From an uncultured Gammaproteobacteria bacterium (GTDB lineage: Bacteria; Pseudomonadota; Gammaproteobacteria; Steroidobacterales; CAZJFQ01), in contig CAZJFQ010000001.1 in the NCBI GenBank assembly GCA_964545335.1, positions 1,766 to 65,765 on the forward strand: a stretch of DNA of 64,000 nucleotides, given 5' to 3'. The notes below the pieces were generated by a model. It saw nothing but the letters and a program-made list of their open reading frames with translations, had not been told where the DNA came from and searched no databases. A program made the position numbers and the translations under genes. Below, one piece after another: positions 1,236 to 55,965 of the stretch (positions are counted from its first letter, which is position 1; every line of letters starts with the position of its first letter).

Positions 1236-1280
1236 CACCACAGCGTGGCTGCGAATCCTGGACCCCCGCCACGAGTGAGC

Positions 1281-1379
1281 CTCTAGGCGCCAGGCGCCCG
1301 GTAGGAAAAAGCAGCAGCGTGAAATGAATAATCCGAATCGCGTCAGCGCGACGTCCCGCTTTTCGCTTCCCGCTTTTCT
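1281..1379 (+). repeat. Composite heptamer/hairpin/heptamer intergenic element, long variant (copy 1)
   Basis: Left units CTCTAGG CGCCAGG CGCCCGG (1281-1301) contain the GGCGC-CAG-GCGCC hairpin. A second hairpin TCGCG-TCAG-CGCGA lies at 1338-1351. Right units CGTCCCG CTTTTCG CTTCCCG CTTTTCT (1352-1379) abut the trpG stop codon. Confidence 0.7.
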
Positions 1380-2012: not shown

Positions 2013-2030
2013 GAGGCTAATGCCCGATGG

Positions 2031-2122
2031 CCTAGGCTGTAGGCTCTAGGCTCTAGGCTCTAGGCGTCGGCGCAATAGCGCCGAGCTTCACTTTTCACTT
2101 GTCACTTTTCACTTCCCGCTTT
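2031..2122 (+). repeat. Composite heptamer/hairpin/heptamer intergenic element (copy 2, archetype)
   Basis: 5 x 7 nt (CCTAGGC TGTAGGC TCTAGGC x3) at 2031-2065. Perfect hairpin CGGCGC-AATA-GCGCCG at 2068-2083. 5 x 7 nt (TCACTTT TCACTTG TCACTTT TCACTTC CCGCTTT) at 2088-2122, abutting the rpe stop codon. Confidence 0.85.
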
Positions 2123-2797: not shown

Positions 2798-2864
2798 AAT
2801 GGGATTTCAACCGTTCGCAAGATCGCGAATGATACAAGTATATTGCACAGGCTTCATTTCCAAG

Positions 2865-2885
2865 CCTTAGGCCCCAGGCCCTAGG
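2865..2885 (+). repeat. Degenerate copy (left-type heptamer array only) of the composite element
   Basis: CCTTAGG CCCCAGG CCCTAGG in the rpe-djlA spacer. No convincing hairpin or pyrimidine array follows. Confidence 0.4.
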
Positions 2886-2965
2886 ATGCAGAAAAGCGCA
2901 CAGACTTGGTTGCGTTACTATTTTTTCTTGCGCCTAGCACCTGTTGCCTAGCGTCTTATCCGTCG

Positions 2966-3772: not shown

Positions 3773-3941
3773 GGCTTCGTACCGCCGGGGGCCAATATCG
3801 TCATCAAAATCATGTCACTACGTCATGACTCGCGCATCCATCGGGCAGGGTCAACGGTCATGATGTGTTGACCGGCGCCGGGCACGCTGCAAGAATGCGC
3901 GTTTTTTCTCATGCCCTTAAACCGGGTTCGGAGTTGGCGGT

Positions 3942-4427
3942 ATGGTAACCGATGAATATCCTGGCAGCACCGGGAAGGACCGATCCGCGACGATCGATAC
4001 GGTCGTCGGGAAGATTCTGGTATTCGGAGAGACGAGCGCCGGACATGTCGGAGCTGAAACCTTCGATGACCCGGTCATGCATACCTATTTCCTCTTATAT
4101 GTATTTGGTGCGCTGGACACGCTGGCCGAGGCGGATGAGCTGGACATCAGGCTGACGGATGATGAAAAGACCGCAGTCATGACCGACGCGCTTTTGGCGT
4201 TCGGCAGCTCTTCGGACGCTCAGGTTGCCGCGACAATCAGAATGTTGCAGCGCGCGCAGGATCAACCGGCGCTGAAAATGAAAAAACGCGGCGCGGACGC
4301 AGCCCGCGAGTGGCAGTGGGGTACGAACGAGGCAGCGACACGGCGGTTTCTGGAAATGCTGGACGATCGGTCGCTGTTCCCTGAAAACGTCCCCTCCAGT
4401 CCGGGGCCGATTGGATCATTGTCCTGA
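3942..4427 (+). CDS. Hypothetical protein (161 aa, cytosolic, acidic)
   Basis: Long ORF filling the djlA-purC gap with no competing recognisable gene. No motif recognised. Confidence 0.55.
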
Positions 4428-5375: not shown

Positions 5376-5475
5376 TACGCGTCGGCATTGTTTCACTTTC
5401 CGTTTATCTGCAGGCACTAGGGAAATAGCGCCGCAGGCGCGCTCTCTTCACTTTTCACTGGTTCATTGTTTACTT
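5376..5475 (+). repeat. Composite heptamer/hairpin/heptamer element, tandem/nested copy (copy 4)
   Basis: TACGCGTCGGC, then TTTCACTTTCCGTTT, then CTGCAGG CACTAGG (5408-5421). Hairpin GCGCC-GCA-GGCGC at 5428-5440 is preceded by AATAGCGCCG. Degenerate TCACTTT TCACTGG TTCATTG TTTACTT follows (5448-5475). Confidence 0.65.
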
Positions 5476-5605: not shown

Positions 5606-6922
5606 ATGCTCACCATTTTTTCCCGACTGGCTGACGCCTTCCTGTTCAATGAACGAACCGATGCCGCCGGTCGCCCGCTCCGTACGCTTATCCGGTTTCT
5701 CCGGTTTCCCTATGCCATTCTGCGCGATGTTATAAGCGGAGATCTTACCCTGCGAGCGATGAGTCTTGTGTATACAACGATGTTGTCGATCGTACCGTTA
5801 CTCGCATTTAGCTTTTCCGTTCTCAAGGGGTTCGGTATTCACAGACAGATCGAACAACCGCTGCTGAAATTCTTCGAACCATTGGGTCAGCGCGGAATCG
5901 AACTGTCAAACAATATCATTAGCTTTGTCGACAATGTGCAGGGGACGATACTAGGTACCTTCGGCCTTATTTTTCTGATCTATACAGTTATTTCGATGAT
6001 TCAGAAAGTCGAAGACAGTTTTAACTACGTCTGGCAGGTCGAGCGGCCGCGGAGTTTTGCACGACGATTCAGCGAATATGTGAGTGTCTTGCTGATCGGT
6101 CCCGTTCTGATGTTTACGGCTATTGGCCTGCTTGCATCTCTGGAAAGTACGACTCTGGTACAAAGATTGTCAGAAATCGAACCTTTCGGAACCACGCTCT
6201 TTTACATTTCCAGGTATGCCCCGTTTGTACTGGTCATATTCGTATTCAGCTTTGTCTATTCATTCGTTCCGAATACGCGCGTCAAATTGAGCGCGGCCCT
6301 AGTTGGCGGGACGACGGCTGGCATCATCTGGGCAACGATTGGAAAATTATTTGCGGCGCTCGTTGCCGCGTCGACCAAATACACCGCTATCTATTCGGGA
6401 TTTGCAATCGTTGTCATGGCGCTGATGTGGTTGTATATCAGCTGGCTGATTCTGCTCCTCGGCGCGCAAATTGCATTCTATTATCAGAACCCGGAATTCC
6501 TTCGCAGCGGACGCAGGCGAGTGGAACTGGCCGGTTTACTGCGGGAAAAGTTGGCTTTGAGCACGATGTATCTCCTGGCCGCGGCGTATTACGAAGGGCG
6601 CAACGAGTGGACGCTGAACAAGCTCGCGTCACACTTCGGTGTTCCGGCCAACGCGTTTGGTTCGGTCACGTCGGCACTCGAAAAGCGGGGGCTTATAGTT
6701 GCGACGGAGAATGAACAACTGATGCCAGGCCGGGCGCTTGACACGATTCTGCTGACAGACGTTCTTGCCGCAGTCCGGGACAGTACTGCCGAAGCACCGC
6801 AGCGCACCGGAGTGGCTGTTGTCGACAAACTAGCTGGCGAAATTGAGTCGGCGATTGCGGACAAGCTGGGCAAGAAAACTCTGCGGGATGTCGTCGACAC
6901 TCATGCGGTGACTACCGCCTGA
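5606..6922 (+). CDS. YihY/BrkB-family inner membrane protein with C-terminal cytosolic extension
   Basis: Multi-TM core typical of YihY ('RNase BN-like'). The C-terminal ~130 aa look like a winged helix (WTLNKLASHFGVPANAFGSVTSALEKRGLIV). Confidence 0.85.
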   Translation: MLTIFSRLADAFLFNERTDAAGRPLRTLIRFLRFPYAILRDVISGDLTLRAMSLVYTTMLSIVPLLAFSFSVLKGFGIHRQIEQPLLKFFEPLGQRGIELSNNIISFVDNVQGTILGTFGLIFLIYTVISMIQKVEDSFNYVWQVERPRSFARRFSEYVSVLLIGPVLMFTAIGLLASLESTTLVQRLSEIEPFGTTLFYISRYAPFVLVIFVFSFVYSFVPNTRVKLSAALVGGTTAGIIWATIGKLFAALVAASTKYTAIYSGFAIVVMALMWLYISWLILLLGAQIAFYYQNPEFLRSGRRRVELAGLLREKLALSTMYLLAAAYYEGRNEWTLNKLASHFGVPANAFGSVTSALEKRGLIVATENEQLMPGRALDTILLTDVLAAVRDSTAEAPQRTGVAVVDKLAGEIESAIADKLGKKTLRDVVDTHAVTTA

Positions 6923-6932
6923 CCCGTGGCGG

Positions 6933-8282
6933 TCAGTCGCCGGCGATCGTCATCGACTCAATCAAAAGTGATCCTGTTCGGATGACACCTCGGACGTCGA
7001 CATCGGTGCCGACCTCCCTGATTCCCGCCAGAATATCCCGCAGGTTGCCGGCGATGGTCACTTCGCTGACCGGATACTGAATCTCTCCTCGTTCCACCCA
7101 AAACCCCGCAGCGCCGCGCGAATAATCACCGGTCACAATGTTGACTCCCTGGCCGATCAGTTCTCGCACAAGGAATCCGGTGTCCATCGTCCTCAGCATC
7201 GAATCGGCATCCAGACTGCCCGAGGTGACCAGCAGATTATGCACGCCGCCGGCATTGCCGCTGCTCTCCAGTCCGAGTTTGCGAGCCGAGTAACTGTCAA
7301 GTACATACCCGCTGACAACACCATCGGAAACCAGATCGTGGTCAGCTGTTGCGACGCCTTCGCCGTCAAATGCGGCACTGCCCATTGCTTTCGGCAGGTG
7401 GGGGCGTTCCACGATCGAAAGCTGGTTCCCAAAGACCTGGCTGCCGGCCGAGTCCAGCAAAAAAGACGCTTTGCGGTATTGTGCCGGTCCGCTTACGGCA
7501 CTCACAAAGTTGGAGATCAGGCCTCGTGCCAGCTCGGCCGGAAAGATGACCGATGCCTTGCGAGTGGAGATTTTTTTTGCGCCAAGACGTTCGATGGTCC
7601 GTTGTGCTGCCTGGCGCCCGACGCTACCGGCTGCTTCGAGATCCGAGGCATCCCGCGCCACGCTGTACCAGTAATCGCGCTCCATGCCACCGGCATCCCG
7701 GCTGATGACGACACAACTCAGATTGTGACCGGTGGCTTCCTGGCTACCCATAAAACCGTGCGAGTTGCCATAGATTCTCATCCCCTGATGACTGCTGACG
7801 GCGGCGCCCTCAGAGTTTTCGATGCGCGGATCCAAGTCGAGCGCCGCCGACTCACATTCCGTGGCGAGCTCGATGGCGTGTTGCGGAGTCAGGTTCCAAG
7901 GGTGGCAAAGATCGAGGTCCGGTACCGACGTGGCCATCCGATCCGCATTGGCCAGCCCGCTGAAGGGATCCTCCGCAGTGTGCCTGGCGATGGTGCAGGC
8001 TTTGGCGACCGTATCAGTCAGTGCCTCCGGGTCCAGATCGGACGTACTGGCCGAGCCTTGTCGGTGACCGAAAAACACCGTCACACCGAGGCCCCGATCA
8101 CGCTGATACTCCAATGTTTCGACTTCACCCAGACGCACCGTGACTGCCAGCCCGGAATTACAGGTAACTGCGGCTTCTGCCTGATCAGCACCACGTGAAC
8201 GCGCGTCGTCCAGCGTCTGCTGGACCAGCTGCTCCAGGTCGCTCCTGGAAAGGTCAATTGTCCGAACTGGCTCGGCTATCAC
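6933..8282 (-). CDS. pmbA: Metalloprotease PmbA (TldE)
   Basis: PmbA/TldD family, colinear with E. coli PmbA from GADQAEAAV onward. GTG at 8282 (residue 24 of the track ORF) follows GGAGGA and gives ~449 aa. The track start at 8351 is probably over-extended. Confidence 0.9.
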   Translation of the reverse strand: MIAEPVRTIDLSRSDLEQLVQQTLDDARSRGADQAEAAVTCNSGLAVTVRLGEVETLEYQRDRGLGVTVFFGHRQGSASTSDLDPEALTDTVAKACTIARHTAEDPFSGLANADRMATSVPDLDLCHPWNLTPQHAIELATECESAALDLDPRIENSEGAAVSSHQGMRIYGNSHGFMGSQEATGHNLSCVVISRDAGGMERDYWYSVARDASDLEAAGSVGRQAAQRTIERLGAKKISTRKASVIFPAELARGLISNFVSAVSGPAQYRKASFLLDSAGSQVFGNQLSIVERPHLPKAMGSAAFDGEGVATADHDLVSDGVVSGYVLDSYSARKLGLESSGNAGGVHNLLVTSGSLDADSMLRTMDTGFLVRELIGQGVNIVTGDYSRGAAGFWVERGEIQYPVSEVTIAGNLRDILAGIREVGTDVDVRGVIRTGSLLIESMTIAGD

Positions 8283-8522: not shown

Positions 8523-9365
8523 TTGAGTCCATCGCAACCGATCGACGGCGCGACGCGCGGCTTCATCGCGGCCATCGGCGGCGGGGAAGAAAAATTTGAT
8601 GACCCCGAGATCCTGCATCGATTTGTCAATCTGTGCGGCGGCGAGCCCGCGCGTATTGCTGTCATCCCGACAGCCTCCGAGCTGAATGACAGCGGCCGAC
8701 ATTACGAGAAGCTGTTTCGAACGATCGGCGCCAATCATGTACGGGTACTGGGTTTTTACTCCCGTTCCGACTGCGAGAACGAGAAGTACCTCAACTACCT
8801 GGCCAAGGCCGACGGAGCATTTATGACCGGTGGCAATCAGTTGCGTCTCTCGACTACGCTCGGTGGCACGCCGGTGGCTCAACTGTTACGGCGCCGAAAT
8901 ATGCAGGGCATGCATATCGCAGGAACCTCCGCCGGCGCGGCATTTATGCCGGAGCACATGATTGCAGGCGGTATCGAGGGCAGCACCCCGCGCCCCGAGC
9001 TGGTGACGATGGCGCCGGGACTCGGTTTGACCAATCGCATTGTTGTCGATCAGCACTTTCGAGAACGGGATCGGTTGGGACGGCTACTCACCGCGCTGGC
9101 TTACAACCCCTTTGCGGTGGGCATTGGTCTGGATGAAAACACTGCCGCTTTTATAGCACCGGATGATACTCTAGACGTGATGGGTACCGGCGGACTGACA
9201 ATCGTCGATCCCTCGGAGATTGAATTCTCCTCGATGGACTCGGCCCAGCGTGGGGAACCGGTTAGTCTGATCGGAGTGCGATTACACATCCTGGTCTCCG
9301 GCGGACACTACGACCTCGTCACACGCGAGGCCAGCCATCGAGCAGAACGAATAGCGACAACATAA
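8523..9365 (+). CDS. cphB: Cyanophycinase (peptidase S51), no signal peptide
   Basis: IGGGEE start region and nucleophile motif IAGTSAGAAFM. TTG start at 8523 with GGGAGG 8 nt upstream. The N-terminus is not signal-like, so it resembles the intracellular CphB type. Confidence 0.88.
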   Translation: MSPSQPIDGATRGFIAAIGGGEEKFDDPEILHRFVNLCGGEPARIAVIPTASELNDSGRHYEKLFRTIGANHVRVLGFYSRSDCENEKYLNYLAKADGAFMTGGNQLRLSTTLGGTPVAQLLRRRNMQGMHIAGTSAGAAFMPEHMIAGGIEGSTPRPELVTMAPGLGLTNRIVVDQHFRERDRLGRLLTALAYNPFAVGIGLDENTAAFIAPDDTLDVMGTGGLTIVDPSEIEFSSMDSAQRGEPVSLIGVRLHILVSGGHYDLVTREASHRAERIATT

Positions 9366-9389
9366 AGACCCCTGTTAAGGGGCATATTG

Positions 9390-12179
9390 ATGAAAATCCT
9401 GTCGACAAATGTATTTGTGGGCCCGAATATCTATGCTCGGTTTCCGGTAATCCGTCACGTGCTGGATCTTGGTGAACTGGAAGCCTGGCCAACGGGCCGA
9501 CTGGGTCCCGACTTTACTGACCCACTGCTCGAGGCTTTGCCGGGCCTTTACAAACATGGCTGTTCATATGGTACAGCCGGCGGCTTTGTGCGGCGTCTCA
9601 AGGAGGAAGAAGGCACCTGGCTGGGCCATGTCATGGAGCACGTTGCCATCGAGCTGCAATGCGCGGCCGGCTCCGATGTTACCTTCGGCAAGACACGGTC
9701 GACCGGCAAGCCCGGCGAATACAACCTGATCTTTCAGTACAAGGATGAAGAGGTCGGTCGTGAAGCCGGCCGCCTCGCTCTGGATTTTCTGCATCATCTG
9801 TTGCCGTCTGAACTCAAGCCGGCCGATGCGCCGGCAGCCGAATGGGATTTCACGGCAGAACGGGATAAGTTTATCCGCTATGCGCAGCGTCGGGCCCTGG
9901 GGCCGAGCACGGCCTCACTCGCCCGCGCCGCGGAAGATCGCTCGATACCGTGGATACGATTGAATCGTTACAGCCTATTGCAGTTCGGGCACGGCAAATA
10001 TCAGCAACGCATTCAGGCGACAACCACCAGCCAGACCAGCAACATTGCCGTCGATCTGGCGTCCGACAAGGAAGAAACCAATCGCATACTGACCGACCTC
10101 GGTCTGCCGGTACCGCGGCAGCGGTTGGTTTACAGCGCAAGGGAAGCGGTGAGAGCAGCCGAAAGGATTGGCTATCCCGTAGTCTTGAAGCCCATCGCGG
10201 CCAATCACGGCCGCGGCGTATCTACCAACCTCCGCGTGCCGGAGGAAATTGAAACCGCGTTTGCGAAAGCACGCGAGCATGCCCGGACTGTACTGGTTGA
10301 GAGTTTTATCGAAGGATTTGATCACCGGATACTGGTGACCAACGGCGAAATGATCGCGGCGGCAAAACGCATTCCCGGTCACGTCGTCGGTGACGGCAAA
10401 CTGACCATTGAACAACTTGTAGATGAGGTCAACCGCGATCCGCGACGTGGTGTCGGACATGAGAAAGTACTGACACGTCTGGAGTTTGATCACCAGGCCG
10501 AGAAACTCCTGCAACTGAATGGCTACAGCCGCGATACCGTTCCGCGCACCGACGATATAGTCTATTTGCGAAGAACTGCGAATTTGTCTACTGGTGGTAC
10601 GGCGATCGACGTCACGGACATTGTCCACCCCGACAACCGCGAAATGGCTATACGCGCCGTTCGCGGACTGGGACTGGACATCGGTGGCGTCGATTTCCTT
10701 ACCACGGATATTGCCGAATCCTACCGGGACACCGGTGGTGCGATCTGCGAGGTGAACGCCGGACCCGGCTTTCGCATGCACGTCGCGCCAAGCGAAGGAC
10801 AGCCCCGCGACGTGGCTGGTCCGGTACTCGACATGCTATTTCCCCCGGGCACGCCCAGCACAATTCCGACGGCATGCATTACCGGTACCAACGGCAAGAC
10901 GACCACTGCACGCATGCTGGCCCACATCATGAAGCTGGCTGGTTATACAGTGGGCTTGTCCAGCACTGACGGGGTCTATATCGATGGTCACCTTTCAGTA
11001 GAAGGCGACATGACCGGACCGATGGCGACCAATATGATACTCCGCGACCCGACCGTCGACGCCGCCGTTCTGGAAACTGCACGCGGCGGCATGCTCCGAC
11101 GCGGCATGGGCATAGCCCATTGCGACGTTGCAGCCTGTATCAATGTTTCGGCCGATCATCTCGGTTTGCATGGAATCCATACGGTCGAACAGCTTGCCGA
11201 AGTCAAACGCATTCCAATAGAGATCGCGCAGGACTCGGTCGTGCTCAATGCGGATGACGTCAACTGTCTGAAAATGGCGGATTACGCCGAGGCTGAACAC
11301 GTTTGTTACATCAGTATGAATCCGGGTCATACATTGGTGAAACAACATATTCAATCGGGAGGCCGGGCTGTAGTACTGGAAGAAGGCTACAACGGTTATA
11401 TGATCACGATTTACGACAGTGGCAACCACATCCCGCTGCTGTGGACCCACCTTATCCCCGCAACGCTGGAAGGACGTGCGCTGCATAACGTGCAAAATGC
11501 AATGTTCGCGGCAGCGCTCGCTTACAGCCTCCACGTCAGTCTGGAAAATATACGGCATGGTCTGAGGACCTTTGACACCACATTCTTCCAGGCGCCGGGA
11601 CGGATGAACGTCTTTTCAGAGCACCCGTTCAAGGTCATTCTCGACTATGCCCACAATCCGGCAGCGGTCCAAACCATGTGCGACGTTGTTGACCGGCTGG
11701 ACGAGCCCGGGCGAAAGATTCTCGTATTGTCGGCGCCCGGAGATCGCCGGGATGAGGACATTCTCAAAATCGGCAGTCTGGCTGCCTGCCATTTTGATCA
11801 CTATGTCTGTCGCGGCGACGATAATCCGCGCGGCCGCCAACCTGAGGAAGTCCCGCGCATGCTGGCCGACGCCCTGATTGCCGGCGGTGTCGAAAAATCG
11901 CACATCGAAGTCATTGCCGACGAACAGGAAGCCGTCGACAGCGCACTGAGAGCAGCAGAATCGGGCGACCTGGTGCTCATCTTTGGTGACAACATAAAAC
12001 GCTGCTGGAAGCAGATCATCTATTTTGATGCACACAAACCAATGGCGGGCGCGCGTGAGGTAAGAAAAGAACGTATCGCACCCGCGGAAGACTATGGTTT
12101 CAAAATGGATGAGGACGTTACCCTGATTCGCGATGAACGGGGCGTACGTATCGCCCGCGGACCCGAGCAGGACGACTGA
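9390..12179 (+). CDS. cphA: Cyanophycin synthetase CphA (N domain + ATP-grasp + Mur-ligase-like domain)
   Basis: MKILSTNVFVGPNIY N-domain start, ATP-grasp core (GYPVVLKPIAANHGRGV), Mur-type P-loop ITGTNGKTTTARM, and DYAHNPAA. About 929 aa. Confidence 0.93.
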   Translation: MKILSTNVFVGPNIYARFPVIRHVLDLGELEAWPTGRLGPDFTDPLLEALPGLYKHGCSYGTAGGFVRRLKEEEGTWLGHVMEHVAIELQCAAGSDVTFGKTRSTGKPGEYNLIFQYKDEEVGREAGRLALDFLHHLLPSELKPADAPAAEWDFTAERDKFIRYAQRRALGPSTASLARAAEDRSIPWIRLNRYSLLQFGHGKYQQRIQATTTSQTSNIAVDLASDKEETNRILTDLGLPVPRQRLVYSAREAVRAAERIGYPVVLKPIAANHGRGVSTNLRVPEEIETAFAKAREHARTVLVESFIEGFDHRILVTNGEMIAAAKRIPGHVVGDGKLTIEQLVDEVNRDPRRGVGHEKVLTRLEFDHQAEKLLQLNGYSRDTVPRTDDIVYLRRTANLSTGGTAIDVTDIVHPDNREMAIRAVRGLGLDIGGVDFLTTDIAESYRDTGGAICEVNAGPGFRMHVAPSEGQPRDVAGPVLDMLFPPGTPSTIPTACITGTNGKTTTARMLAHIMKLAGYTVGLSSTDGVYIDGHLSVEGDMTGPMATNMILRDPTVDAAVLETARGGMLRRGMGIAHCDVAACINVSADHLGLHGIHTVEQLAEVKRIPIEIAQDSVVLNADDVNCLKMADYAEAEHVCYISMNPGHTLVKQHIQSGGRAVVLEEGYNGYMITIYDSGNHIPLLWTHLIPATLEGRALHNVQNAMFAAALAYSLHVSLENIRHGLRTFDTTFFQAPGRMNVFSEHPFKVILDYAHNPAAVQTMCDVVDRLDEPGRKILVLSAPGDRRDEDILKIGSLAACHFDHYVCRGDDNPRGRQPEEVPRMLADALIAGGVEKSHIEVIADEQEAVDSALRAAESGDLVLIFGDNIKRCWKQIIYFDAHKPMAGAREVRKERIAPAEDYGFKMDEDVTLIRDERGVRIARGPEQDD

Positions 12180-50379: not shown

Positions 50380-50388
50380 ATGACTGTG

Positions 50389-50517
50389 TCTTGAGTCCTG
50401 AGCCAGCGGCGCAACTGCGCCGGATATTTTTCCATTTTTTTGATGTTCTTCGTGGTCAATTACGCGTCAGCGTTACTTCCCGCTTCCCGCTTCCCGCTTC
50501 CCGCTTCCCGCTTCCCG
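50389..50517 (+). repeat. Composite heptamer/hairpin/heptamer element, long variant with 6 perfect CTTCCCG units (copy 5)
   Basis: TCTTGAG TCCTGAG (50389-50402). Hairpin CGGCGC-AACT-GCGCCG (50407-50422). Spacer with ACGC-GTCA-GCGT (50462-50473). (CTTCCCG)x6 at 50476-50517, 5 nt from the ggt stop codon. The unit count was checked against ORF 50322..50555. Confidence 0.85.
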
Positions 50518-50522
50518 CTTTT

Positions 50523-52220: not shown

Positions 52221-52405
52221 ATCGAACTCCCTTGGATAATCAGCACATCCGGTGTCGCGGGGATTTTGTATTTCCGGGCAATTCTACCGGAAACAACGAT
52301 GGCAAAGCGCGCTACAGATAGCGCACACTTTGCGTGCGAAAGGAATTTTCCAGCCGGCGGCTCCGAACGCCGCCATCTGCCGACTGTGGACTGAGGACTC
52401 ACGAC

Positions 52406-52792
52406 ATGGACGACAACAAATCTTTGACGATTCTGCAAGCCCTTGCCGACGGTGCCAATCCGTTTACCGGTGAGGGATTCCCCGGTGACAGTGTCTACCA
52501 GGACCCGCGTCTGATTCGGGCTCTGTTCGCGGCGGTACAAAGCCTCGAGCAGGCGGCAGGGCGGCGATCAACCAGAAAGGACCTGCCGCCCAACACCGGC
52601 AAAAAATGGGCACAGGAAGAAGAACAGAAACTCGCGGTCGGCTTCGACTCCGGCCGCAGCATCGAGGAACTGGCCGTTGTTCATCAGCGAACCTATGGTT
52701 CCATCGAAGCCCGGCTGGCGAAGATCGGCAAAATAGAGTTGCCGCCGGAGAAACTGAGATTCCACCAGGCCAGGAAATCCCAAAATCCATAG
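52406..52792 (+). CDS. Hypothetical small protein (128 aa)
   Basis: ATG at 52406 (MDDNKSLT). Divergent from ggt. Possible helix-turn-helix flavour (KKWAQEEEQKLAVGFDSGRSIEELA) but not confidently recognised. Confidence 0.5.
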   Translation: MDDNKSLTILQALADGANPFTGEGFPGDSVYQDPRLIRALFAAVQSLEQAAGRRSTRKDLPPNTGKKWAQEEEQKLAVGFDSGRSIEELAVVHQRTYGSIEARLAKIGKIELPPEKLRFHQARKSQNP

Positions 52793-54966: not shown

Positions 54967-55353
54967 TCAGACTCGACGACGTTTCGGTGGCCGACAACCA
55001 TTGTGCGGAATCGGCGTAACGTCTTCGATTTTGGTGATCTTGTAACCAACGGCATTGAGTGAACGCACCGCCGATTCCCGGCCTGGTCCCGGACCCTTGA
55101 CCCGGACCTCCAGATTCTTCAGACCGTAGTCCTGCGCCGCCTTGCCGGCTCTTTCGGCCGCAACCTGGGCTGCAAACGGCGTGCTCTTGCGCGACCCGCG
55201 AAAACCACAACCACCCGCAGTCGCCCAACTGAGCGTATTGCCCTGACGATCAGTAATCGTGATGATGGTGTTGTTAAACGACGCGTGTATATGCGCGATT
55301 CCATCCATCACAGATTTCTTGACCTTTTTCCGTGCTTTTGTTGGCTTAGCCAT
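54967..55353 (-). CDS. rpsK: 30S ribosomal protein S11
   Basis: [18 protein letters not shown] motif. Confidence 0.98.
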
Positions 55354-55463
55354 CTGTTAGTCCTGAGTCCTGAATCCTGAGCTGCCGACGCATCCGCATC
55401 GGTTCACTTTCCGCTTGCCGCTGTCCGCTTTCCACTTTTCACCTTTCACTTCCCGGTTCCCGC
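55354..55463 (+). repeat. Composite heptamer/hairpin/heptamer element inside the alpha operon (copy 6)
   Basis: CTGTTAG TCCTGAG TCCTGAA TCCTGAG (55354-55381). Imperfect hairpin CCGACGC-ATCC-GCATCGG (55385-55402). Eight units TTCACTT TCCGCTT GCCGCTG TCCGCTT TCCACTT TTCACCT TTCACTT CCCGGTT (55403-55458). The parts sum to the 117-nt rpsM-rpsK spacer. Confidence 0.85.
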
Positions 55464-55470
55464 AAAGTGC

Positions 55471-55827
55471 TTACTTCTTGATCGGTCTCCGCGGGCCCTT
55501 TCTGCAGCGTGCATTCGTCCTGGTTCGCTGACCCCGAACAGGCAGCCCGCGCCGGTGACGGATTCCGCGGTAGCAACCGAGGTCCATCAAGCGTTTGATG
55601 TTCATCGACACTTCCCGGCGCAGGTCGCCCTCAACCGGGAATTTCGCGATTTCCGTCCTGAGTTTAGCCAACTCCGGCTCACCCAGGTCCTTGACCTTGA
55701 CTCCCGGGTCAATACCGGCGCCAGCACAAGCCTGTCTGGCCCGGGTTTGTCCGATGCCATAGATATCGGTCAGTGCGATACCGATGTGCTTGTGTACCGG
55801 TATGTTGATGCCTGCAATACGTGCCAT
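55471..55827 (-). CDS. rpsM: 30S ribosomal protein S13
   Basis: [14 protein letters not shown] start. Confidence 0.98.
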
Positions 55828-55828
55828 G

Positions 55829-55948
55829 CTGTAGTCCTGAGTCTGTATCCTAGGTCTGTAGTCTGTAGTCTGTAGTCTGTAGCAATGTCATGGCGCTATA
55901 GCGCCGCTTCTTTTCACTCTTCACTCTTCGCTTCCCGCTTCCCGCCGC
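55829..55948 (+). repeat. Composite heptamer/hairpin/heptamer element in the rpmJ-rpsM spacer (copy 7)
   Basis: Eight units CTGTAGT CCTGAGT CTGTATC CTAGGTC TGTAGTC x3 TGTAGCA (55829-55884). Hairpin GGCGC-TATA-GCGCC (55892-55905). Then CGCTTCT TTTCACT-type units TCACTCT x2, TCGCTTC, CCGCTTC, CCGCCGC (to 55948). Confidence 0.85.
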
Positions 55949-55965
55949 GTGAACCTTGTGCACGC

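Follow-up and report, generated by a model that had tools for sequence, protein, structure and literature searches.

A dispersed heptamer repeat element between rpsM and rpsK of an uncultured gammaproteobacterium and its probable use as the rpsK initiation region

Intergenic tandem repeats of seven-nucleotide (nt) units are abundant in several bacterial groups and are functionally unexplained. In enterobacteria, extragenic palindromes of the REP/BIME and ERIC types, which are short and GC-rich, recur in transcribed intergenic or intercistronic positions, are tolerated inside operons, and are expected to act as messenger RNA (mRNA) stabilisers or processing signals. Cyanobacteria reportedly carry dispersed tandem heptanucleotides, the STRR sequences that Mazel and colleagues are said to have described in 1990, which are intergenic, co-transcribed and variable between strains. 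In Xanthomonas, GGGAATC repeats follow stop codons on the coding strand, with aligned open reading frames (ORFs) on either side; they are transcribed, vary in length at conserved loci, form G-quadruplexes (G4) in vitro and have no explained function (Rehm et al. 2015, PMC4692102). The G-rich heptameric simple sequence repeat (SSR) of Nostoc has the unit GGGGAYT (PMC4692102). In marine Beggiatoaceae, two to six forward TAACTGA repeats end within a few nucleotides of start codons, often replacing a canonical ribosome-binding site (RBS); some lie inside ribosomal-protein operons, upstream of the genes for L3, S4, S1 and S21, and a translational role has been proposed for them (MacGregor 2015, PMC4679880). 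Heptanucleotide repeat families are also listed in the genome paper of Geobacter metallireducens (PMC2700814). Here we describe a heptamer-based element that fills the spacer between rpsM, encoding ribosomal protein S13, and rpsK, encoding S11, in a 64,000-nt stretch of DNA from an uncultured gammaproteobacterium (the window).

The window carries a spc/alpha operon on its minus strand, in the order rplF, rplR, rpsE, rpmD, rplO, secY, rpmJ, rpsM, rpsK, rpsD, rpoA, rplQ. The rpsM–rpsK spacer is 117 nt long, and its coordinates and minus-strand sequence had been given correctly in an initial annotation made from the DNA alone; the same annotation rightly held the E. coli spacer to be very short (16 nt when checked). 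For comparison we used about 80 species representatives, three closer metagenomic relatives, strain contigs and one sister species (contigs L146 and L147). Read in the direction of transcription, the spacer is made of a purine-rich heptamer array, a hairpin and a second heptamer array that runs up to the rpsK start:

55471..55827, minus strand: rpsM ORF (S13, 118 amino acids)
55471..55473, minus strand: rpsM stop codon, TAA
55354..55470, minus strand: rpsM–rpsK spacer, 117 nt
55462..55470, minus strand: unique 9-nt linker GCACTTTGC from the stop codon to the first array; not in the sister species, where the array abuts the stop
55403..55461, minus strand: module 1, purine-rich array of eight heptamers of the GGGAAGY/GRAARGY type plus GAA, reported with period 7 by Tandem Repeats Finder (TRF)
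55385..55402, minus strand: module 2, hairpin CCGAUGC-GGAU-GCGUCGG with a 7-bp stem and a 4-nt loop, predicted in both the minimum-free-energy (MFE) and the centroid structure
55361..55381, minus strand: module 3, start-proximal heptamers CTCAGGA TTCAGGA CTCAGGA
55361..55364, minus strand: AGGA of the last module 3 unit, candidate Shine-Dalgarno (SD) motif of rpsK, 7 nt from the ATG, predicted to be largely unpaired
55354..55360, minus strand: CTAACAG, the degenerate final unit, which spaces the SD from the start of rpsK; the sister species has CTGAATACGGAA instead
55351..55353, minus strand: rpsK start codon, ATG
54967..55353, minus strand: rpsK ORF (S11), with an identical protein on five metagenomic contigs

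The 7-nt periodicity of the spacer is far above chance, and the feature is real. Its autocorrelation at lag 7 is 0.53, against 0.28 ± 0.04 for shuffled sequence, a value reached by none of 2000 shuffles; the pattern CTCAGGAYTCAGGA, with at most two mismatches, matches 5 times where 0.53 matches are expected; and TRF reports two period-7 arrays within the spacer. On the mRNA strand the units of module 1 read GGGAACC GGGAAGT GAAAGGT GAAAAGT GGAAAGC GGACAGC GGCAAGC GGAAAGT GAA, so that GGG is kept in only two of them, the others being of the GAAAGGT or GGAAAGC kind and similar. The initial annotation had spoken of a hairpin and a polypurine tract directly after the rpsM stop. The hairpin stands; the tract begins 9 nt past the stop and is a degenerate heptamer array, not a homopurine run, because pyrimidines recur in it every 7 nt (79% purine over 61 nt; the longest stretch of at least 85% purine in the spacer is 34 nt). 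G exceeds C over the entire spacer. A CAG separates the hairpin from the first CTCAGGA unit, and the three AGGA motifs of module 3 are indeed spaced by 7 nt, the last ending 7 nt before the rpsK ATG, as had been claimed.

Judged by its sequence, the spacer represents a single copy of a modular repeat that is dispersed over intergenic sites in this uncultured lineage. Copies occur in at least five further spacers of the window, and the shared architecture, from 5′ to 3′, is an array of purine heptamers (AGCGGGA/AGTGAAA, or GGGAAGC), a short GC hairpin, typically GGCGC-N4-GCGCC, and a second heptamer array of the CTNNNGA type, built of CTCAGGA, CTACAGA or CCTAGAG and extending to the next start codon. 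The copies and partial copies outside the rpsM–rpsK spacer are:

55828..55965, minus strand: full paralogue in the rpmJ–rpsM spacer; (GGGAAGC)/(GAGTGAA) units, GGCGC-TATA-GCGCC, then (CTACAGA)4 CCTAGGA TACAGA CTCAGGA CTACAGC and the ATG
50380..50522, minus strand: full paralogue in the spacer that separates ggt from a gene of the phosphotransferase family (aph); (AGCGGGA)6, an insert, GGCGC-AGTT-GCGCC, then CTCAGGA CTCAAGA
2013..2122, minus strand: full paralogue in the rpe–trpG/pabA spacer; AGCGGGA (AGTGAAA)n, GGCGC-TATT-GCGCC, then (CCTAGAG)3 CCTACAG
1255..1379, minus strand: degenerate copy in a convergent spacer, following the stop of trpG/pabA; AGCGGGA AGCGAAA AGCGGGA, then hairpins
5390..5465, minus strand: degenerate copy, antisense to its plus-strand neighbours purC and a BrkB-family gene
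2862..2886, minus strand: isolated array of the module 3 type upstream of rpe; CCTAGGG CCTGGGG CCTAAGG

A two-module pattern search of the window gave 2 matches against 0.00 expected, 9 of the 10 period-7 TRF arrays of the window fall in five spacers, and the density of such arrays is 15.6 per 100 kb in the window versus 4.7 in relatives. GGCGC-N4-GCGCC is found in four window spacers and three L146 spacers, the rpsM–rpsK hairpin being a diverged 7-bp version of it, and over the roughly 1.9 Mb examined the array-flanked hairpin is confined to this lineage, metagenome contigs selected by the pattern itself excepted. The purine array follows a stop codon at rpsM (9 nt on) and likewise at rpe, ggt, rpmJ and trpG, and in L146; at the other end, three to four units end at the rpsK ATG and seven to eight at the rpsM ATG. 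Six of the seven window copies are co-directional with their flanking genes, the purC/BrkB copy being antisense, and in all seven the purine strand is the leading strand; gene-linked and replication-linked orientation are thus inseparable within the window. Right after the ggt stop (50476–50520), (AGCGGGA)6 makes up a perfect G3N4 G4 motif on the mRNA strand, with one unit fewer in a strain contig, L148.

The organism falls near MAGs of Woeseiaceae, Steroidobacteraceae and Chromatiales. The best species representatives have a SecY about 76–77% identical to that of the window and are metagenome-assembled genomes (MAGs) labelled Chromatiales, Steroidobacteraceae or Gammaproteobacteria; S13 identity to relatives is at most 82%, the sister species (89%) excepted. 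In the roughly 80 relatives the rpsM–rpsK spacer is mostly 12–60 nt long and unrelated in sequence, and in the three closer metagenomic relatives (S13 81–82%), with spacers of 19–63 nt, the element is absent at this site. These short, unrelated spacers rule out a lineage-typical long leader, which the initial annotation had named as the finding that would speak against insertion. Its proposal that a repeat element has been inserted into a spacer that is usually short holds, given the paralogues in other window spacers and the lack of any copy here in relatives with S13 identity of 82% or less.

The sister species is syntenic and has orthologous elements at both rpsM–rpsK and rpmJ–rpsM. Its rpsM–rpsK spacer reads TAA (AGCGGGA)2(AGCGGAA)3 AGAAGC GGCGC-TACT-GCGCC GCCGG CTCAGGA CTCATGA CTCAGGA CTGAATACGGAA ATG, and the comparison shows that the element entered this spacer in a common ancestor of the two species and has been kept since. 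Elsewhere the presence of the element differs between them; the rpoA–rplQ spacer, for instance, measures 148 nt in one and 21 nt in the other.

Sister-species contig L146 is far more densely colonised by such repeats (3911–4185, 6511–6838, 8042–8218 and 9077–9458). About 23 MGTGARA units follow the stop of the phosphotransferase gene; between rplQ and a hypothetical gene, arrays flank a bidirectional terminator of canonical form, the purine strand being the sense strand of each gene; and GGCGC-TGAT-GCGCC followed by (CTCAGGA)x6 lies in a convergent spacer.

The modules of the rpsM–rpsK spacer evolve in different ways. Strain contigs with an identical S11, about 1% diverged from the window, have spacer alleles of 103, 110, 117 and 124 nt, and all differences are whole heptamers within the purine array (indels of 7, 14 and 21 nt). 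The two sister-species alleles, 93 and 86 nt, are also one unit apart. In strain alignments of 10–18 kb, multi-base indels are confined to two arrays, this one and (AGCGGGA)n of the ggt–phosphotransferase spacer. The purine array thus evolves by gaining and losing 7-nt units as wholes, in the way that replication slippage would predict. In contrast to the slipping purine array, the start-proximal array is almost frozen. The three CTCAGGA-type units are invariant in six strain contigs. Between the window and the sister species, identity at the four-fold degenerate sites of rpmJ, rpsM, rpsK, rpsD and rpoA (n = 385) is 39.7%, where chance alone would give 27%, and mean column identity is 74% for the rpsM–rpsK spacer and 86% for the rpmJ–rpsM spacer. 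The stretch from the hairpin to the last CTCAGGA is 22/24 (92%) identical, with a probability of about 2e-7 at the silent-site rate, the rpsM-proximal stretch shows 3 differences in 44 columns, and the orthologous rpsK arrays share the same imperfect unit pattern and unit number, the middle GGA unit being CTCATGA in the sister species. In this comparison the start-proximal array is far better conserved than silent sites. Invariance among strains, together with 22/24 identity where silent sites are near saturation, fits a role in the initiation region.

The hairpin, too, is conserved, and as a structure. The sister hairpin, GCGGCGC-UACU-GCGCCGC, keeps 7/7 pairs with 5/14 stem positions changed, by compensatory double changes (C-G/G-C and A-U/G-C) and a wobble (U.G/C-G); of the two strands, only that of the mRNA tolerates the U.G pair. 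Across eight orthologous and paralogous hairpins, 93% of the alignment cells are paired (20–58% in slid registers), and covariation is 0.30 against 0.16 ± 0.04, a value reached by 1/500 shuffles.

We think it probable that the rpsM–rpsK element is a co-transcribed repeat whose 3′ module has been co-opted as the initiation region of rpsK. The element would be transcribed as part of the spc/alpha operon mRNA. A promoter consensus or terminator was not found on the minus (mRNA) strand between 54900 and 56200, and the sequence search thus yielded neither the internal promoter nor the terminator that the initial annotation had thought capable of separating the element from rpsK initiation. The 117-nt gap would abolish the termination–reinitiation coupling that is possible with a 12–20-nt spacer, and initiation at rpsK would therefore be de novo, taking place on the unstructured run of CTCAGGA units, where the last AGGA would serve as a weak SD. 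The hairpin may act as a REP-type mRNA element, either a barrier to 3′ exonucleases or a processing site. G-rich, C-poor RNA is unfavourable for Rho loading at rut sites; the composition of the gap would keep it from loading Rho, which may be why the insertion is tolerated in an essential operon.

Several observations are consistent with this proposal. The last AGGA, 7 nt from the ATG, is the sole SD-like motif in range of the rpsK start, and the SD region is unpaired in the MFE structure. The same arrangement, AGGA, 7 nt and ATG, recurs at rpsM in both species, and in the Alpha_RBS consensus it is aligned there to the SD of E. coli. The element thus plausibly supplies the RBS of rpsK at this site, as a local co-option and not as the defining role of the family. 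Other copies end in units lacking an SD (CTACAGA before the phosphotransferase gene in L146, CCTAGAG before trpG), and the (CTCAGGA)x6 run of the L146 convergent spacer is far from any start codon; SD supply is therefore a site-specific consequence, not the purpose of the element.

A number of results weigh against this reading. The duplex of AGGA with the canonical anti-SD, at about −4.1 kcal/mol, is weak, similar to that of rplF and weaker than those of rpoA, secY, rplO and ggt, and the distance from AGGA to the rpsK ATG is 7 nt in the window species versus 12 nt in the sister species. The initial claim that the last unit supplies the rpsK SD therefore stands as regards the lack of any other SD-like motif in range, and is weakened by the poor pairing and the changed spacing. 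The spacer folds no better than shuffled sequence (z = −0.23), and accessibility of the rpsK translation initiation region is ordinary (rank 16 of 44 genes; probability of being unpaired 0.56 for the SD region), which rules out that the element keeps the RBS unusually open. A G-to-A change in some strains breaks one pair of the hairpin, the unique linkers of the spacer are not conserved in the sister species, and one of the degenerate copies lies antisense to the genes around it. Concerted evolution with other genomic copies, instead of selection, could account for the high conservation of the repeat modules. Lastly, we infer co-transcription, processing and the start site, and the suggested Rho-avoidance and REP-like roles are drawn from composition and analogy only.

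Other classes of explanation for the spacer itself were rejected. At gathering thresholds Rfam gave no match in the whole window, and a permissive search gave none in the rpsM–rpsK spacer, the only hit being a sub-threshold Alpha_RBS (RF00140) at rpsM (31.4 bits versus a gathering threshold of 38), which covers only the SD and first codons, with 61 model positions deleted. An E. coli-type S4-binding leader is absent at rpmJ–rpsM. A phase-variable contingency SSR is ruled out, as the variable array, bounded by stop codon and hairpin, stays 40 nt or more away from the SD and there is no promoter. A G4 at this locus is likewise ruled out: the spacer has no G3-type motif, and canonical G4 potential in the window is confined to the ggt–aph copy. 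Nor is the second array an inverted complement of the first, as in a miniature inverted-repeat transposable element, in this lineage; such an arrangement is found in contigs L041 and L044 and in many metagenomic contigs. The tetranucleotide GTAG, which REP-type palindromes conserve and which goes with an associated RAYT transposase, occurs solely as part of CTACAGA units.

The spacer may instead be neutral or selfish repeat DNA, that is, slippage microsatellites around a REP-like hairpin with no role in rpsK expression, where the AGGA is coincidental or left over from an ancestral SD and conservation reflects homogenisation. Whole-unit polymorphism among strains, variable presence at other spacers (the rpoA–rplQ difference of 148 nt versus 21 nt), the unconserved linkers and SD spacing, and the existence of published heptamer repeats with no demonstrated function (PMC4692102, PMC4679880) would all suit this view. 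We consider it unlikely, since the substitutions in the hairpin are compensatory and do not copy the family consensus, the same imperfect unit pattern and number is found in the orthologous start-proximal arrays in spite of near-saturated silent sites, and rpsK has to be translated across a 117-nt gap with no other SD.

A bolder version of the co-option reading, to which we give still less credence, holds that the element is a selected intercistronic RNA module: the G-rich tract would block Rho and ribosome read-through, the hairpin would form a processing or stability boundary, and the heptamer run would recruit the 30S subunit directly or via a protein that reads the 7-nt period, so that translational coupling is replaced by independent, tunable initiation in ribosomal-protein and dozens of other operons of the lineage. 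If this were true, the heptamer repeats of Xanthomonas, Beggiatoaceae and cyanobacteria, which are unexplained, might work on the same principle.

More doubtful again is the idea that the start-proximal heptamers form a multivalent platform for an RNA-binding regulator controlling rpsK within a lineage-wide post-transcriptional network. The regulator might be CsrA/RsmA, as the initial annotation had suggested, or of the S1 or Csp type, as proposed for TAACTGA, and the same idea has been raised for Beggiatoaceae (PMC4679880). As in a CsrA-regulated leader, there are three AGGA motifs, the last of them the SD candidate, and the three GGAs stand at a fixed 7-nt spacing and overlap the SD; arrays also abut the starts of rpsK, rpsM and the phosphotransferase gene, and one in contig L109, and the rpsK array is strongly conserved between the two species. 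However, a single CsrA dimer is not known to bridge sites only 7 nt apart, so that only sites 1 and 3 (14 nt) would be bridgeable. The GGAs are not predicted in hairpin loops at rpsK, where the region is predicted to be single-stranded; the sister species has lost the middle GGA; the units vary by copy (CTCAGGA, CTACAGA, CCTAGAG), mostly with no GGA; and the (CTCAGGA)x6 array of the convergent spacer has no start nearby. The csrA gene was not found in the 64-kb window, a result that is silent on the rest of the genome. The suggested CsrA/RsmA platform thus receives little support.

An action at the DNA level, through a G4 or triplex, binding of a nucleoid protein, or REP/RAYT-like replication-linked single-strand transposition with orientation set by replication, is very unlikely: all seven window copies, including the gene-antisense one, do have the purines on the leading strand, (AGCGGGA)6 is a canonical G4 motif and Xanthomonas GGGAATC forms G4 in vitro (PMC4692102), but the rpsM–rpsK spacer lacks a G3-type G4 motif, the hairpin U.G pair works only on the mRNA strand, and the L146 purine arrays follow transcription, because in convergent pairs they occupy the sense strand of each of the two genes.

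Some neighbouring features deserve mention. In the rpmJ–rpsM spacer, the non-repeat stretches are about 87–100% conserved in the sister species (four-fold sites 40%); they are a hairpin, GCGTGCACAAGGTTCACGC, after the rpmJ stop and TGACATTG before the array, and may constitute a lineage-specific operator or promoter of the alpha operon. Between rplQ and ggt, a plus-strand ORF of 152 amino acids (52334–52792) runs opposite to the operon; it has no Pfam match, and a gene at its position is conserved in strains and in the sister species (L001, L146, L148). Beyond the high-coordinate end of the window, the rplW–rplB spacer of a near-identical strain (L148, 1057–1137) contains an 8-nt tandem repeat (GAGCTAAA in two to three copies) and no heptamer.

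Heptamer elements in ribosomal-protein spacers are not confined to this lineage. Among the relatives found through SecY, three unrelated gammaproteobacterial MAGs carry them at the following positions:

L009, 13990-14120: rpoA–rplQ spacer
L041, 7390-7525: rpsN–rpsH spacer
L044, 485-605: rpsJ–rplC spacer
L044, 5683-5805: rplN–rplX spacer

With these cases and the published heptamers in ribosomal-protein operons of Beggiatoaceae (PMC4679880), the initial remark that such an element is unusual inside a highly expressed operon was overstated. In L041 and L044 an array of the AGTGAAA type begins at the stop codon or overlaps it, and the inverted complement of that array ends just ahead of the next start, so that the two would form a long intercistronic stem in the mRNA. 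A scan of metagenomes for purine units followed by the hairpin pattern returned 60 contigs, whose GC content ranges between 38% and 70%. Many of them carry the array again in inverted form past the hairpin, or else a T-run resembling a terminator, and L109 alone has a window-like second array that ends at a gene start. Soil metagenome contigs L092, L105, L116, L127, L136 and L142 share (GTGAAGG)n, a GGCGC..GCGCC hairpin, a hairpin CCCTCTCCCCCGTCACCGGGGGAGAGGG and an inverted (CCCTTCAC)n array. This composite palindrome looks like a separate dispersed element of high-GC soil bacteria, of which we found no description. A gammaproteobacterial MAG (L046, 14430–14554) has an 18-unit TCCCGTC array (GACGGGA on the other strand), a unit related to AGCGGGA. 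A literature search on the exact sequence (GTGAAAA)3 found no paper.

The rpsM–rpsK locus is an unusually clean natural experiment, since in two species whose silent sites are nearly saturated the same element separates a pair of essential genes that are normally coupled in translation. The contrast between its modules makes the question of junk versus functional mRNA module testable by simple reporters. It also bears on the stoichiometry of ribosomal proteins when translational coupling, and E. coli-type S4 control of rpsK and rpsD, are physically interrupted.

In sum, the element is a member of a known, functionally unexplained class of bacterial heptamer repeats. It shares with the REP/BIME and ERIC palindromes the recurrence of a palindrome at many extragenic sites, and differs in its far shorter stem (5–7 bp) and in the heptamer microsatellites that flank it. 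From the cyanobacterial STRR it differs in units and phylum, and we know of no STRR described with a fixed three-part order around a hairpin. Like TAACTGA of Beggiatoaceae, it places forward heptamers that end at start codons inside ribosomal-protein operons, but its unit contains AGGA, and its array comes coupled with a purine array and a hairpin upstream; the TAACTGA unit itself, with up to two mismatches, has 0 matches in the window and 0 in 150 loci. Tandem heptamers are found in Xanthomonas as well, the family unit GGGAAGC being 6/7 identical to GGGAATC (PMC4692102), although at rpsM–rpsK only two units keep GGG. The likeness to Xanthomonas extends to an intergenic position mostly between co-directional ORFs, as also in Nostoc (PMC4692102), to the placement of the purine array after stop codons, and to loci that are conserved between species while length and sequence vary. 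Unlike the Xanthomonas repeats, however, the array here belongs to another lineage, is degenerate (AGTGAAA, GGAAAGC), lacks four G3 tracts at rpsM–rpsK, shows no preference for four units, and invariably precedes a GC hairpin with an unrelated second heptamer array behind it. New here are the fixed three-part arrangement around a hairpin, the retention of the element at two intercistronic sites of ribosomal-protein genes across species with near-saturated silent sites, the compensatory evolution of the hairpin, and the contrast between a slipping purine array and an almost frozen start-proximal one.

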